Program-made: the position numbers and the translations under genes
NCBI GenBank assembly: GCA_038211855.1
Contig: JBBQVE010000006.1
Span: 2,146 to 66,145, forward strand
Reading direction: 5' to 3'
Length of the DNA: 64,000 bases
Origin: Candidatus Saccharimonadales bacterium
GTDB taxonomy: Bacteria > Patescibacteriota > Saccharimonadia > Saccharimonadales > SZUA-47
Notes under the pieces: model-generated
What the model was told of the DNA's origin: nothing
The model's database searches: none
Seen by the model: the letters and a program-made list of their open reading frames with translations, nothing else
Shown here: positions 7,289 to 58,373 of the stretch, piece after piece
Layout of the letters: every line of letters starts with the position of its first letter
How positions within the stretch are numbered: the stretch's first letter is position 1

Positions 7289-7912
7289 TTAAAAGGCAGC
7301 AACGTACGAAGTGTCTTGGAATTCGCCAAGTCGTTCAAAATCATACTGTCCGGAAGTTTCCAGATATTTGGGATCATGGAGGAAAAACTGTTCTTCACCT
7401 TCGGGCTGGTACGCCATACGAGCATGTGCCCCTGTATCACTGTGGCCTTCGAGTATCACAGCCAAGCCTGATTGCAGTCGCCGCGTTACTTCTGGCAAAA
7501 TGTTATCGCTCTGAATAGACTCCACACCGATACGCTTCCCAAAAAATCTTTCTAAGATAAAGGCAAAATGATGCGGATTGCTCGTGAAGCCCCTGAACTT
7601 TCCATCGTCAGTCGGTACCCAATAGCCATCAAATGCTTCGTCTGATGCGATTTCTTGTTGGATTACAGCTGCCTCGGCAGGTGCAAGTGACTCCCTGACT
7701 ATCAAAGCATTGAGAGATGAAGTCAGCCTACAAGATTGTTTGCCATATGGTTCTGATTCGTCGATCTGTGATAACAGCACATTTCTAACCGAAATATTTT
7801 GTCGATTTGTCGGGGGAACAGGATCGTCCCACCATTTAACGGGATACAGCTTTGAATCCGGTCCATAAAAACCATCAACTGTCCTTGCGCTTCCAGTAAA
7901 ACCACCTGCCAT
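7289..7912 (-). CDS. Hypothetical protein, possible papain-like Cys/His hydrolase fold
   Basis: 207 aa with no signal peptide. It has a Q-x-C (YGKQSCRLTS) followed later by EGHSDTGAH and LHD, an order compatible with a Cys-His-Asp triad. The fold assignment is speculative. Confidence 0.6.
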   Translation of the reverse strand: MAGGFTGSARTVDGFYGPDSKLYPVKWWDDPVPPTNRQNISVRNVLLSQIDESEPYGKQSCRLTSSLNALIVRESLAPAEAAVIQQEIASDEAFDGYWVPTDDGKFRGFTSNPHHFAFILERFFGKRIGVESIQSDNILPEVTRRLQSGLAVILEGHSDTGAHARMAYQPEGEEQFFLHDPKYLETSGQYDFERLGEFQDTSYVAAF

Positions 7913-55346: not shown

Positions 55347-57011
55347 CTACATCGATTCGGGGGCTTGGACGCCAAGCAAATTGAGGCCGGTTTCGAGGAC
55401 TTTTTGGTAGGTTTCCAGGAGGGCGAGGCGCTTGCTTTGCCGCAAGTCACCAACGACACGTTCATTTTCGTAAAAGCGGTTGAAGGTCTGCGTAAGTTCG
55501 TAGAGATAGGTGCAGATGTGATGCGGCATATACTCTTTGAGTACTATTGCGATTACCTCTGGAAATTCAGTCATTTTTAGCGCCAAGGTTCGTTCGAATT
55601 CCGTAAAGTCTGTGCCGGCAGTTTTCTCGGCGTCACCAGCTTTTTTCATAATTGAGCAAGCTCTGGCATGGGCATATTGCAGGTACGGGCCACTGTTGCC
55701 TTCTATACTGACCGACTCAATCGGATCATAGATGATATCACCACCTATCCGCTGTTTCAAGAAGGCGTACTTCACCGCCCCGAGCACAACCCGTCCGTCT
55801 TCTTTGCCAGTGGCATGAAAGTTCGCTTCTTTGGCAGCATCCAAGATGTCGATAGCTCGCAGAATATTACCTTTACGCGAACTCATCTTCACGCCGCCCG
55901 GCAGTTTTATGACTCCATGCGTCAGATGAGTGGTGCGCTCAACTGCCTCTGGGTAGAAATTTGATAGTACTTGTAGCACAACCTTCATATACTCAGTTAT
56001 GTCGTTGGCGGTAATGATAAAACTTTTATCAAACTGATAGTCCAGCCATTTTGTCGCGGCGAGCCCGAGGTCTTTGGCTTCGTACGTCGGCAGTCCGGCG
56101 GAATTCATGAAGACACGCGTATGCAAACCGTATTCTTCACCCTTAAAGACGATGGCACCATCCGAATGAACCAAGATATCTTTATCGAGCGCTTCCTGAA
56201 CGATTTTGAGACCAGCAGGAGTGACCTCACTTTCGGGTATAAAGCGCTCGAATGGCTGCACTTGTAATTGCTGATACAGGTCTTTGAAGCCATCATAGCT
56301 CCACTCGCGACAAATCCAATAAATCTTGGCAAACGGCGTGTCGTGATCATGTTCAGAATGTAAGGTGTAGACCTGCTTGCTGTAGGTGGTAATAGCATCT
56401 TTGTTGTCGTTGTGTTCTTCGAATGCACTGTTGCCTTCAACATAACGTGCACTCAACCAATCAAGTCTGTGGAGTGGATCGACTTCATTCAGTTTTTCGG
56501 GATACTCGCCACCGAGATAACGAATAATCGCGTACATCGTCATGCCGACGTGTCGCCCGACATCACCGCCAAAATTGACGCGGTGTAGCGTGGCGCCGGC
56601 TGCCTGCATAACGTTGGCAATCACATCACCGACCACCGTTGTGTACAAATGCCCAGCGTGTAATACCTTGAAGGGATTCGGGTCTGAATACTCGGCGACT
56701 ACGACTTTGCCTGCCAGTTGTTGCGGCACATCAGCGGCTTTTTCGAGGAGGGTTTTCAAGGCATCGTCATTAAGACGGATATTTAAAAAACCAGGCCCAG
56801 CGACTTCGGCTGCGTACCCCACTTTTGCAAGTCCAGCTGCCAGCGCCTCTGCAATTTCACGCGGGTCTTTACCCACTTGCTTCGTCACCTGCATGGCAAC
56901 ATTACTGGCAAAATCACCAAATTCCGGCTCGGGACGTGACACCAGCGGAGCAATATCAAGCCCAAAAAGCTCTCGCACGCAAATTCTTATTGCAATTTTA
57001 ACTTCTTCCAT
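55347..57011 (-). CDS. argS: Arginine--tRNA ligase
   Basis: Class I HIGH-type motif (HAGHL), MSSRKG (KMSK-like), and a DALR anticodon-binding C-domain ending ...APESM. 554 aa. Confidence 0.95.
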   Translation of the reverse strand: MEEVKIAIRICVRELFGLDIAPLVSRPEPEFGDFASNVAMQVTKQVGKDPREIAEALAAGLAKVGYAAEVAGPGFLNIRLNDDALKTLLEKAADVPQQLAGKVVVAEYSDPNPFKVLHAGHLYTTVVGDVIANVMQAAGATLHRVNFGGDVGRHVGMTMYAIIRYLGGEYPEKLNEVDPLHRLDWLSARYVEGNSAFEEHNDNKDAITTYSKQVYTLHSEHDHDTPFAKIYWICREWSYDGFKDLYQQLQVQPFERFIPESEVTPAGLKIVQEALDKDILVHSDGAIVFKGEEYGLHTRVFMNSAGLPTYEAKDLGLAATKWLDYQFDKSFIITANDITEYMKVVLQVLSNFYPEAVERTTHLTHGVIKLPGGVKMSSRKGNILRAIDILDAAKEANFHATGKEDGRVVLGAVKYAFLKQRIGGDIIYDPIESVSIEGNSGPYLQYAHARACSIMKKAGDAEKTAGTDFTEFERTLALKMTEFPEVIAIVLKEYMPHHICTYLYELTQTFNRFYENERVVGDLRQSKRLALLETYQKVLETGLNLLGVQAPESM

Positions 57012-57019
57012 TGTTGCTC

Positions 57020-57529
57020 TTATTCTACCTTATTTCTACTCCAAGCGTCTTCAAAGATATAAGCCTTGTCACAGCAACTATTAAGTGGGAAATTACACTT
57101 TTTGGGACAGTTTTGACAGTTTAAAAGCGAGTCCGACGGTACATCGTCCAGCGACATATGCTGATAGCCCAACTTTTCAAACAAAGGTGCGCTATTTGGA
57201 TTGCAAAATGCCAGGATATTCTTGACAGCAGTAAGCACGACACGCGACGTGGTCACTCTTATCAGATCACTCCCAAGGCCTCTTCCTCTGTAGTTAGGGT
57301 GCACGATGAGGCTACCGATTTCAGCAGTATCAGTCTCGGTATAAGACGCTGTTTGTGCCGCGTATCCGACCACTTTACCACTGGCCAACATAACCCCCGC
57401 GAGTGTATTCGCTAACATTTTTTCCTGATCAAGCGGCAACATTTGTTCATCGAGTGTGTGGGCAGCAAGGTCCTGTACGGCAAGCCAGTTTTCTACACTC
57501 GACTCAATGGCTTGATAAATTAAACTCAT
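57020..57529 (-). CDS. GNAT-family N-acetyltransferase with Cys-rich C-terminus
   Basis: Acetyl-CoA motif A IVHPNYRGRGLGSDLI. C-terminal CQNCPKKCNFPLNSCC. AGGAG SD 5 nt upstream. The stop lies 8 nt from the argS ATG. Confidence 0.85.
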   Translation of the reverse strand: MSLIYQAIESSVENWLAVQDLAAHTLDEQMLPLDQEKMLANTLAGVMLASGKVVGYAAQTASYTETDTAEIGSLIVHPNYRGRGLGSDLIRVTTSRVVLTAVKNILAFCNPNSAPLFEKLGYQHMSLDDVPSDSLLNCQNCPKKCNFPLNSCCDKAYIFEDAWSRNKVE

Positions 57530-57540
57530 ATTTTCTCCTA

Positions 57541-57569
57541 AAATTAAAAGCCCCCAGATGATTGGGGGC
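57541..57569 (-). terminator. Intrinsic terminator directly upstream of the GNAT RBS
   Basis: Minus strand reads GCCCCCA-aucauc-UGGGGGC (57569-57550) followed by UUUUAAUUUU, then AGGAG. Confidence 0.7.
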
Positions 57570-57618
57570 GATCAAGGGCCTTTTTGTTAGAATTTATGCA
57601 ACTTCAAGGACCGCCCCC
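57564..57618 (-). promoter_or_regulatory. Candidate antiterminator helix competing with the 57541-57569 terminator
   Basis: GGGGGCGGUC (57618-57609) pairs over 10 bp (one G-U) with GAUCGCCCCC (57573-57564). The latter includes the 5' arm of the terminator stem. Confidence 0.5.
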
Positions 57619-57668
57619 GTAAAACGAGTGCGACGACGTGATATAAAAACGTTGCATGAATAAATCAT
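57594..57668 (-). CDS. Candidate 24-aa Arg-rich leader peptide
   Basis: ATG ATT TAT TCA TGC AAC GTT TTT ATA TCA CGT CGT CGC ACT CGT TTT ACG GGG GCG GTC CTT GAA GTT GCA TAA = MIYSCNVFISRRRTRFTGAVLEVA. The ATG lies 7 nt after a -10 box. Confidence 0.45.
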   Translation of the reverse strand: MIYSCNVFISRRRTRFTGAVLEVA

Positions 57669-57675
57669 AAGTACT

Positions 57676-57703
57676 ATTTTAGCTTATTTCTGTTATTTGT
57701 CAA
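57676..57703 (-). promoter_or_regulatory. Near-consensus sigma70 promoter (leaderless geometry) for the leader/GNAT/argS unit
   Basis: TTGACA (57703-57698), 16 nt, TAAAAT (57681-57676), then 7 nt to the ATG at 57668. The -35 overlaps the last codons of the upstream gene. Confidence 0.6.
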
Positions 57704-58373
57704 AATTTCGGTCTCGTAGCAGTGACATCCCGTACCAAAAAGCGATATAGATACAGCTTGTGGCAATAAAGAACACTCCGGTGACAAGGAACGAACGATT
57801 GTAATTAAGCGGATTAAGGAAGGTATCGGACACATCAAACAACAGCGTTTGCGGATGCAGCAGGATGTCCCATGAATTCCAGCGTAGAAAGCGACCCATA
57901 TCGACCGCAAAGCTACTCGCCAAGATGAACAGGCCGACCAATAGATGAGCATTCAGGCGTCCAAAGCGCTTTATGAGTGGCCGGTGCACGATCCACAGTG
58001 ATACACTACCCTGAATAAAGCCCGCCATAGCGAATAGCGCCAGCATGACGATGTCAAATAACAGGTTGATATCGGCCGTTTCGCCGAGATGCACAAAGTC
58101 AGTCAGCATATAAAACGTGTTTGGCAACAAAAAGAGCCAAAGACAGAAAAAGACGATTTTCCAGAGACGGTGCTTGCGTTCCCAAAAGTGGGCGAACAAG
58201 CCGGCCGAGCCTACCGCCAACAGAGACAACGTCAGATTCCAGATCATAAAAGAAAAATCGGCTTTGCTGGTGGCTGCAATTCGGATTGCCAAAAGCAATA
58301 ACGCTCCCGCACTCGGTGCGCCGAGAATGATCAGTACGGCTTTTTGCCACCGCCAAAGCGTCAGTCGAGACAT
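57693..58373 (-). CDS. DUF1361-like integral membrane protein
   Basis: Motifs LLPNTFYMLTDFVHL and RFLRWNSWDIL resemble DUF1361. I place the start at ATG 58373 (MSRLTLWRWQ), which avoids overlapping the divergent gene. Confidence 0.65.
   Translation of the reverse strand: MSRLTLWRWQKAVLIILGAPSAGALLLLAIRIAATSKADFSFMIWNLTLSLLAVGSAGLFAHFWERKHRLWKIVFFCLWLFLLPNTFYMLTDFVHLGETADINLLFDIVMLALFAMAGFIQGSVSLWIVHRPLIKRFGRLNAHLLVGLFILASSFAVDMGRFLRWNSWDILLHPQTLLFDVSDTFLNPLNYNRSFLVTGVFFIATSCIYIAFWYGMSLLRDRNFDK

Follow-up and report, generated by a model that had tools for sequence, protein, structure and literature searches.

A candidate arginine-responsive attenuator in the leader of an acetyltransferase gene of Saccharibacteria

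The DNA analyzed here is a stretch of 64,000 nucleotides (hereafter, the window) from a Candidatus Saccharimonadales bacterium (contig JBBQVE010000006.1), and the element under study is a leader that lies between a gene for a DUF1361 membrane protein, its upstream neighbour, and a gene for a GNAT acetyltransferase of 169 amino acids (57020..57529, ATG at 57529; Pfam acetyltransferase families match). All coordinates of the locus refer to the minus strand of the window. The downstream neighbour is argS (55347..57011), which encodes an arginyl-tRNA synthetase of 554 amino acids and whose ATG is found 8 nt after the GNAT stop codon. In a preliminary description of the locus, the leader was proposed to be an arginine-sensing attenuator; the promoter, the ATG, the 24-codon open reading frame (ORF), the arginine codons, the terminator, the GNAT gene and argS were all found where that description had placed them. 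Related loci, designated L001 onwards, were compared, and the leader was examined in seven lineages: the window, L016, L025, L015, L017-L022, L026-L033 and L034-L037.

The putative leader promoter is made of a TTGACA −35 hexamer (57698..57703), which overlaps the final codons of the DUF1361 gene, and a TAAAAT −10 hexamer (57676..57681), with a 16-nt spacer in between. With 11 of 12 consensus positions matched, it is the best promoter-like site detected by a consensus scan within 54.5-60 kb. TTGACA, TTGACG or TTGAAA is present at the equivalent position in L016, L015, L017, L025 and L026; a TTGACA-like −35 is found in 6/7 lineages, and L034 has an extended −10 only. The −10 box lies 7 nt 5' of the ATG of a mini-ORF in the window, and 6-8 nt 5' of it in all seven lineages. 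This is a leaderless geometry, and the mini-ORF has no Shine-Dalgarno (SD) sequence. The same geometry had been attributed to about 14 other genes of the window, a count that turned out to be too low: a TAnnnT box is found 5-10 nt before the start codon of around 20 genes, mostly as an extended −10 (TGn) with a poor −35. Examples are the gene starts at 7912, 15455, 19712, 25636, 26266, 37865, 53170 and 58420, which show TGnTAnnnT 6-10 nt upstream. The perfect TTGACA of the leader promoter is an exception among the promoters of the window, and it is kept across lineages. The arrangement suggests an unusually strong promoter that is throttled by an attenuator.

The mini-ORF (57594..57668, ATG at 57668) has 24 codons plus a stop and would encode MIYSCNVFISRRRTRFTGAVLEVA. 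Its regulatory codons, CGT CGT CGC ACT CGT (R R R T R; 57624..57638), form a run that is rare: among 763 short ATG-initiated ORFs in the six frames of the window, only one has at least four Arg codons in five. Codon usage identifies CGT and CGC as the main Arg codons of the genome. The Arg-run mini-ORF, described at first in the window alone, is conserved in relatives, as the GNAT upstream regions of six further lineages carry an orthologous one. Across the seven lineages its length is 14-24 codons, and an in-frame RRRT(R) or RRIR run is present in every case. The predicted peptides, each followed by a stop, are MTFLFSTASRRRTRFTGAVLEVA in L016, MTYLSTVLIRRRTRFTGAVLEVA in L025, MINSLNLISRRRTRFTGAVLEVV in L017, (MF)MLYCLDITYQLRRIR in L015, MKSVSISVIVRRRTSKGC in L026 and MITHTIVSVIRRRT in L034.

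Divergence within the mini-ORF follows a pattern. The stretch that precedes the first Arg codon measures 30, 27, 27, 27, 33, 30 and 30 nt, all multiples of 3, and its sequence has diverged despite this periodicity of length. The Arg codons themselves vary at third positions only (CGT CGT CGC; CGC CGA CGC in L017; CGC CGT CGC in L026), so that differences in relatives are synonymous. The placement of the ATG, the in-frame lengths and the synonymous changes at the Arg codons indicate that the mini-ORF behaves as coding. Other parts of the peptide are less constrained: the 9-11 N-terminal residues are not conserved in sequence, and the distance from RRRT to the stop codon ranges from 0 to 10 codons. 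In L015, the stop codon comes directly after RRIR, and the nucleotides downstream, ACGGGGGCGGTTCTTGAAG, are nonetheless conserved. Because this stretch is untranslated in L015 yet conserved, it must be constrained as RNA.

The RNA of the leader can form several helices, some of which compete. A closing stem, P0, was detected by a repeat finder, by constrained folding and by RNAalifold; its 5' arm, UUCAUGCAAC (57651..57660), lies within codons 3-6 of the mini-ORF, and its 3' arm, GUUGCAUAAA (57593..57602), contains the mini-ORF stop codon. The stem had been described previously as 7 bp long; it does exist, but it is longer, 10-11 nt (57660-57651 with 57602-57593). Region 1, CGCACUCGU (57624..57632), is made of the Arg3-Thr-Arg4 codons and provides the 5' strand of the 1:2 hairpin. 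Region 2 is a G-run, ACGGGGGCGGUC (57609..57620), that pairs either with region 1 via 57620-57612 or with region 3 via 57618-57609. Region 3, GAUCGCCCCC (57564..57573), is the 3' strand of the antiterminator and overlaps the 5' arm of the terminator; the 10-bp pairing proposed earlier between GGGGGCGGUC (57618-57609) and GAUCGCCCCC (57573-57564) was detected by the repeat finder and by constrained folding, with one G-U included. The intrinsic terminator, GCCCCCA-AUCAUC-UGGGGGC (regions 3:4; 57550..57569), has a predicted energy of −15.2 kcal/mol and is the best one in 54.5-60 kb. Its U-tract, UUUUAAUUUU (TTTTAATTTT in DNA letters; 57540..57549), is recognized in the sequence as well as by the terminator scan, and the AGGAG SD of the GNAT gene (57535..57539) stands directly 3' of it. 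A promoter would not fit between the U-tract and this SD, so that transcription of the GNAT gene needs read-through.

The same leader architecture is found in 7/7 lineages, in each case upstream of a gene of one GNAT family, whose members are 37-59% identical to the protein of the window. The distance from the mini-ORF ATG to the GNAT ATG is 131-145 nt. Three helices are present in every lineage, in two versions, GGGGGC/GCCCCC/GGGGGC and GGGUG/CACCC/GGGGUG, and they exclude one another in each, in agreement with the earlier proposal that the competing helices are mutually exclusive. Across lineages, helix 1:2, in which the Arg3-Thr(-Arg4) codons pair with the G-run, has −7.7 to −10.9 kcal/mol; helix 2:3, between the G-run and the 5' arm of the terminator, −10.4 to −23.1 kcal/mol; and helix 3:4, the terminator, −11.1 to −15.7 kcal/mol. 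In the window, constrained folding gives −21.0 kcal/mol for the antiterminator (2:3) versus −15.2 for the terminator (3:4), an order that suits an attenuator. The antiterminator is weaker than the terminator in L017, L026 and L034, and helix 2:3 is nevertheless present in 7/7 lineages. A terminator lies at the equivalent place in all lineages, detected by the scan in L016, L015, L017, L025 and L026 and by folding only in L034, where it has a 6-bp stem, a 9-nt loop and AUUUUU. The complementarity involved is far from fortuitous: the duplex between the upstream part of the leader and the 5' arm of the terminator has −22.5 kcal/mol, compared with a mean of −7.8 (sd 2.5) in 5000 shuffles, none of which was as low. 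For the full leader, the global energy minimum is P0/1:2 plus the 3:4 terminator; in transcripts that end just 5' of region 4, region 2 is already paired with the 5' arm of the terminator.

Covariation was examined on the same set. Window-type leaders form the 1:2 hairpin from CGCACUCGU/ACGGGGGCG, L026 and L034 from GCACC/GGUGC, and 97.5% of its cells are paired. When the five window-type leaders were given to RNAalifold, the long-range P0, the 1:2 hairpin and the terminator were predicted; 91% of the cells of this structure are paired, compared with 41-50% in slid controls. Both-side changes are found at 8 of its pairs, a number that was reached in 1 of 500 shuffles, and P0 contributes both-side changes at 5/10 pairs across five lineages. 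The antiterminator has 94% of its cells paired (38-60% in slid controls), with one C-G to U-A double change in L015 and several G-C/G-U exchanges.

The most constrained part of the leader is a core of 45 nt, whose identity to the window is 100% in L016, 93% in L025 and 89% in L017. The corresponding values are 64%, 62% and 58% for the adjacent GNAT gene and 72%, 71% and 58% for the start of argS; by these identities, no other sequence of the locus is as conserved as the leader core. That it is far more identical than the GNAT gene indicates strong, overlapping constraints. Between the window and L016 there are 0 synonymous differences over 15 codons. A search for the motif CGNCGNCGCAC detected no other copy in the window or in related loci, and the sole extra match was in L014, which is unrelated and G+C-rich.

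Which gene is the target of the leader was assessed by comparing loci. The preliminary description had envisaged control of the cognate synthetase, as in pheM-pheST. The comparison does not support this. In five lineages that carry the leader, argS is indeed adjacent to the GNAT gene, and the order DUF1361 - 148-176 nt - GNAT - argS is found in L015, L016, L025 and L017-L022. In L026-L033 and L034-L037, however, the leader and the GNAT gene (37-40% identity by global alignment) are located elsewhere in the genome and are followed by a gene for an M20 deacylase of the ArgE/DapE family, while argS is not adjacent. Conversely, the closest argS relatives have neither the GNAT gene nor the leader: this is the case of L005 (78% identity), a JGI contig (72%), and L001 and L002 (52-55%), where the DUF1361 stop codon is 11-41 nt before argS, and of L006-L008, which lack DUF1361 too. 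In L023, argS is also found without the leader. Furthermore, argS has a −10 box of its own, TAGAAT (57022..57027, within TAAGGTAGAAT), which overlaps the GNAT stop codon 10 nt before the argS ATG; this box, as (A)TAAGGTAGAAT or as TATACT in distant relatives, is conserved in ten lineages at 7-13 nt from the ATG, both where the GNAT gene is present and where it is absent. As primary target, argS was therefore rejected. Because the leader travels with GNAT and argS has its own promoter, the leader belongs to GNAT, and argS at most receives extra read-through transcription. No other aminoacyl-tRNA synthetase gene that might serve for comparison is found among the ten largest ORFs of the window.

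The neighbourhood offers some hints about the history of the module. Typically, CarS-like, PHP and CDP-OH_P_transf genes are found in divergent orientation to DUF1361-argS-DPRP. In the window, a 17-nt direct repeat (57021-57037 and 57675-57691; 15/17 identical; AGAAATAAG[G/C]TA[G/A]AATA) holds the −10 boxes of both argS and the leader and flanks a module of 654 nt made of leader and GNAT gene; it is not obvious in other lineages. Recombination between its copies could explain the loss of the module in relatives such as L005, or its gain. The GNAT gene ends in AAG GTA GAA TAA (K V E stop; 57020-57032), which coincides with the TAAGGTAGAAT −10 region, and the same is seen at the junction in L015, L016 and L023. 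Since the GNAT gene ends inside the argS promoter, its last residues are dictated by the promoter of its neighbour. The KVE C-terminus recurs in P0122.

The GNAT protein belongs to a small, uncharacterised family. A word-indexed protein search with the GNAT sequence found only the GNAT protein itself, and an exhaustive HMMER scan of 1.84 billion representatives retrieved 277 proteins at E≤1e-3, the best of them 58% and 49% identical; one member of the family is named as from Candidatus Saccharibacteria. AFCN, CxxCP and CCD motifs are invariant in the family, and the conserved C-terminal tail (CxxC...CCD), which is rich in cysteine, could be a metal site. The best NCBIfam matches are the N-acetyltransferase PRK07757 and several N-acetylglutamate synthase (NAGS) models; weak matches to ArsN2, phosphinothricin acetyltransferases and AAC(6') are also found. 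In an AlphaFold model with a pLDDT of 85, the closest fold is the N-acetylglutamate synthase of Neisseria (2r8v; TM 0.75, rmsd 2.6 Å), which is only slightly ahead of generic GNATs. ArgE/DapE-like M20 deacylase genes lie at 3093-4121 in L026 and at 1185-2153 in L035. A connection of the GNAT family with arginine is plausible from its NAGS-like matches and its ArgE/DapE-like partners.

We propose, with a probability that we place at roughly 0.7, that the leader works like the classical trpL and hisL leaders, as a transcription attenuator in which the translating ribosome gauges how much charged tRNA-Arg is available. Its primary target is most likely the N-acetylglutamate-synthase-like GNAT. 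The arginine-sensing attenuator of the preliminary description thus gains support from its recurrence in seven lineages, from the maintenance of the reading frame, from the synonymous variation of the Arg codons and from compensatory changes in the stems, all of it comparative evidence. We infer where transcription starts, that the mini-ORF is translated, that ribosomes stall at its Arg codons, in which direction the regulation works and what GNAT does.

In this model, transcription would begin around 7 nt after TAAAAT, the 5' end of the mRNA would be at or next to the AUG, and the mini-ORF would be translated as a leaderless message. The state made of P0/1:2 and the terminator would be the default "off" state. 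If Arg-tRNA is plentiful, the ribosome would pass the RRRTR codons and reach the stop codon; the G-run would then be covered, or would re-pair with the Arg/Thr codons of region 1 inside P0. The C-run of region 3 would thereby be free for region 4, the terminator would form, and the polymerase would halt at the U-tract, 8 nt before the GNAT RBS (ribosome binding site). If Arg-tRNA is scarce, the ribosome would stall once one of the first Arg codons (Arg1 or Arg2) occupies its A site, and the stalled ribosome would melt P0, mask region 1 and leave the G-run free. The latter would capture the C-run as soon as it is made (−21 kcal/mol compared with −15 for the terminator), the terminator would be blocked, and transcription would run into GNAT and then argS. 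When a ribosome was placed at the stop codon in silico, the 5' arm of the terminator was freed in L015, L026 and L034, where the ribosome covers the G-run.

Several observations qualify this reading or weigh against it. In the folding check contemplated in the preliminary description, the alternative structures are present; the minimum free energy (MFE) of the whole leader is not unusually low (z = −0.89) and hence not informative, and stability alone would not flag the leader. In addition, when the ribosome footprint was masked at the Arg codons, equilibrium folding still formed the terminator (P = 0.98), the cause being that the G-run pairs with a conserved GGCCCU (57580-57575) just upstream of the terminator. 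Because the equilibrium fold keeps the terminator, the switch must be kinetic, that is, co-transcriptional, as it is in other attenuators; the expected behaviour was obtained only with transcripts that end before region 4. A related difficulty is that the stop codon of window-type leaders lies 24 nt beyond the start of the G-run, and a ribosome at the stop leaves the core of the G-run uncovered; termination must therefore rely on re-formation of 1:2/P0. Covariation of the antiterminator alone is not significant, as 65 of 500 shuffles reached the observed score, and only seven lineages are available, four of them with a nearly identical core, which limits covariation. The identity of the core with L016 exceeds the needs of the Arg codons and the three helices, and something else may be read there. 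In L023 and L024, a GNAT gene (47% identity) is found 7 nt after DUF1361, without a leader (L023 2493-2501, L024 544-552); in that lineage the attenuator is dispensable or has been lost. As for the target, the scores of the GNAT family are all below the curated cut-offs, which makes its NAGS function a weak inference, and Saccharibacteria are generally thought to lack arginine biosynthesis.

Additional elements were observed in the leaders. The conserved GGCCCU is part of a segment (57575-57583; GAGCCU in L017 and L015) with AAGG in front, just upstream of the terminator, and in the MFE fold its CCU pairs with the AGG of the GNAT SD. A role of this element in a second, translational layer or as an anti-antiterminator is possible. 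After the G-run there is a conserved UCCUU (57606-57611) that is complementary to SD sequences of the AAGGA type. In L026 (2399-2415) and L034 (2407-2420), the 1:2 hairpin GCACC...GGGUGC is followed by UAAUAUUU and appears terminator-like in the scan; these leaders would contain two tandem termination signals.

The conservation of the core also invites explanations other than codon reading. One is metabolite-sensing arrest by the nascent peptide, as in SpeFL or TnaC: [IVS]-[IVS]-R-R-R-T would bind arginine, ornithine or an acetylated derivative in the tunnel, and a free metabolite, not the charging of tRNA-Arg, would set the choice between terminator and antiterminator. RRRT and the hydrophobic residues in front of it are conserved in all lineages, the core is more conserved than a simple codon sensor needs, and the RR pair of the speF leader, first read as a codon sensor, was reportedly described later as part of an ornithine-binding arrest peptide. 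We still consider arrest unlikely, given that the 9-11 N-terminal residues are not conserved in sequence and that a distance from RRRT to the stop of 0-10 codons, with L015 stopping right after RRIR, leaves no fixed arrest geometry; besides, conservation beyond the L015 stop is at the RNA level, and the lack of any synonymous difference in 15 codons compared between the window and L016 favors an RNA-level constraint. Another explanation is an RNA-only switch, in which the core CGNCGNCGCAC...GGG(G/U)GC would bind a riboswitch ligand or a protein and so control the terminator. The mini-ORF would be incidental, since one of the three frames of a CG-rich complement to a G-run encodes Arg. Nucleotide conservation above coding needs fits this idea; CGN repeats are naturally complementary to a G-run, so that the Arg codons may be a by-product of 1:2 pairing, and a terminator with an antiterminator suits the expression platform of any riboswitch. 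What makes an RNA-only switch a less probable option still is that in 7/7 lineages the frame opened by the ATG at leaderless distance continues without a stop into the Arg run; that the spacers differ by multiples of 3 only, with a chance of about (1/3)^6 if the lineages are independent; and that CGN variation is confined to third positions. Moreover, no leader has an Rfam match even at E≤1-10, and besides the hairpins there is no obvious conserved structure of the size of a ligand pocket. A broader speculation, about as doubtful as peptide arrest, is that the 45-nt core, which encodes SRRRTRFTGAVLEV and overlaps the helices, specifies an arrest peptide or an RNA pocket that, on the ribosome itself, recognizes free arginine, ornithine or an N-acetylated intermediate and controls an unrecognised arginine-linked acetylation/deacetylation module (NAGS-like GNAT plus an ArgE/DapE-like deacylase or argS). 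If true, it would be a metabolite sensor free of protein factors and specific to Patescibacteria, in bacteria thought to lack arginine biosynthesis.

The identity of the downstream gene raises a further alternative. Many GNATs are antibiotic or antimetabolite acetyltransferases, and the weak matches of this one to ArsN2, phosphinothricin acetyltransferases and AAC(6') would suit a general attenuator of translation stress or antibiotics (erm, cat, vmlR or bmrCD type) placed before a resistance acetyltransferase, with an Arg run that is not specific for the amino acid. According to a published account, leader-peptide attenuation often controls resistance genes (PMC5418344). Yet what diverged leaders keep is specifically the Arg run, the partner genes are arginine-related (argS, ArgE/DapE-like), and the best GNAT matches are N-acetylglutamate synthases; hence, we find an attenuator of this kind quite improbable. 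Least credible of all is the absence of regulation, in which leader and GNAT gene would have been inserted recently between copies of a 17-nt duplication of the argS promoter, leaving a constitutive terminator or an insertion scar with accidental mini-ORF and complementarity. The 17-nt repeat (15/17) on both sides of the 654-nt module, the absence of the module from the closest argS relatives (78% and 72% identity) and the failure of the word-indexed search to find a GNAT homologue might all be taken as traces of such an insertion. However, six other diverged lineages carry the module with its leader, ORF, Arg run and helices, the core of the leader surpasses the rest of the locus in conservation, and the complementarity is far beyond chance. 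A recent insertion scar was rejected, as the exhaustive HMMER search found the GNAT family, whose loci share the leader. Attenuation governed by charged tRNA-Arg is the reading that we prefer.

If attenuation of this kind operates, its implications may extend beyond the locus. Gene regulation in Saccharibacteria/Patescibacteria is almost unexplored, and the leader would be among the first cis-regulatory elements defined in the phylum. According to a 2024 perspective, an inducible expression system is still missing for these bacteria (PMC11665869); a conserved, protein-free, arginine-responsive switch would be a candidate native tool for controlled expression. The same source indicates that one species cannot do without its arginine deiminase pathway, which helps unattached, non-dividing cells to survive (PMC11665869). 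A leader that reads tRNA-Arg charging would report the supply of host-derived arginine to these epibionts. The leader also points to an uncharacterised GNAT family and its ArgE/DapE-like partners within arginine handling. It would bring arginine into the set of amino acids sensed by classical terminator/antiterminator leader peptides, and would show attenuator logic from leaderless mRNAs outside Actinobacteria.

Searches against known families did not recognize the leader. At gathering thresholds, Rfam models found one tRNA in the whole window and nothing at the leader; at E≤10, region 57400-57800 gave a chance-level match only; and at E≤1, L016, L017, L015, L025, L026 and L034, together with L013, gave only tRNAs and a chance match. 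The T-box model (RF00230) had no match in the window, in 57400-57800 or in the six related leader loci. A metagenome pattern scan for the succession of G-run, C-run and terminator found no relatives of this leader; the matches were five, unlike and unrelated, namely the G+C-rich L009 and L014 and one sequence found three times (L010-L012), besides a leader of L013 that is unrelated but analogous. A described leader with Arg codons and terminator/antiterminator, or an attenuator in Patescibacteria, was not found in the literature, most subscription journals being outside the search.

This analogous leader lies in front of aspS in an unrelated high-GC contig (L013 1262-1500, minus strand; Ga0180438_10064732). 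Its components include a promoter (cTTGACC-17-TATAAT), an SD and an ORF of 31 codons, MSWLERHVFNNSDDNDNRDRRGRCSNFQLRR, with a run of Asp/Asn codons. A G-run in this ORF can pair with the 5' arm of a terminator (CGCCCCCAAATCGGGGGC plus U7), and aspS starts around 40 nt later. From these features, it looks like a cognate-codon attenuator for aspS.

Classical attenuators are known in the trp, his, phe, leu, thr and ilv operons, as well as before pheST. The leader described here resembles trpL, hisL, pheL, leuL, thrL and ilvL in having an ORF with a codon run, alternative 1:2, 2:3 and 3:4 pairings, an intrinsic terminator and regulatory codons located in region 1; in the window, the antiterminator is also more stable than the terminator, and the likely target is an enzyme of the first-step biosynthetic type (NAGS-like). 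Unlike the classical leaders, it would sense arginine from a leaderless mRNA, it is found in a saccharibacterial (Patescibacteria) host, it has an extra stem (P0), and no Rfam model represents it. In Firmicutes, T-box riboswitches upstream of argS sense tRNA-Arg charging by means of a terminator and an antiterminator. The likeness to the T-box lies in the signal, in the terminator/antiterminator and in the position before arginine-related genes; the differences are that the leader has no specifier loop or T-box sequence, is far shorter (around 125 nt) and would rely on sensing by the ribosome instead of direct tRNA binding.

Attenuation has also been linked to aminoacyl-tRNA synthetases: attenuators were predicted before trpS2 and leuS of Streptomyces (PMC1262725), and histidine leader peptides upstream of two hisS paralogs of Bacillus (PMC2965389). 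As in pheM-pheST of E. coli and in trpS2/leuS of Streptomyces, five of the lineages studied here present an ORF with cognate codons and a terminator before an operon that contains the cognate synthetase. In contrast with pheM-pheST, the synthetase gene comes after another gene, is served by a conserved promoter of its own and, in two lineages, does not belong to the regulated unit.

The closest parallels to the ORF itself are found in mycobacteria and in Salmonella. The preliminary description knew of no attenuator that starts from a leaderless mRNA, a view that is contradicted by the leaderless polycysteine short ORFs of mycobacteria; as reported there, a stalled ribosome blocks a structure that would otherwise sequester the RBS, thus exerting translational control (Canestrari et al., bioRxiv 10.1101/834739). 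Like this leader, the mycobacterial elements open the mRNA with a short leaderless ORF, contain a codon run for a single amino acid and sense it by ribosome stalling. The differences are that an intrinsic terminator provides the output in the present case, that the amino acid is Arg and not Cys, and that the phylum is another. In orf34 of Salmonella speF, consecutive Arg codons at positions ~12-13 make the choice among alternative mRNA structures depend on arginine supply (Ben-Zvi et al. 2019, PMC6386406), and the outputs are Rho-dependent termination, RNase G decay and access to the RBS (PMC6386406). An Arg-codon run in a short upstream ORF is thus common to both leaders. Unlike the candidate attenuator presented here, however, speF orf34 is an SD-led ORF, contains a conserved peptide domain (DUF2618), precedes a gene for ornithine decarboxylase and does not act through an intrinsic terminator.

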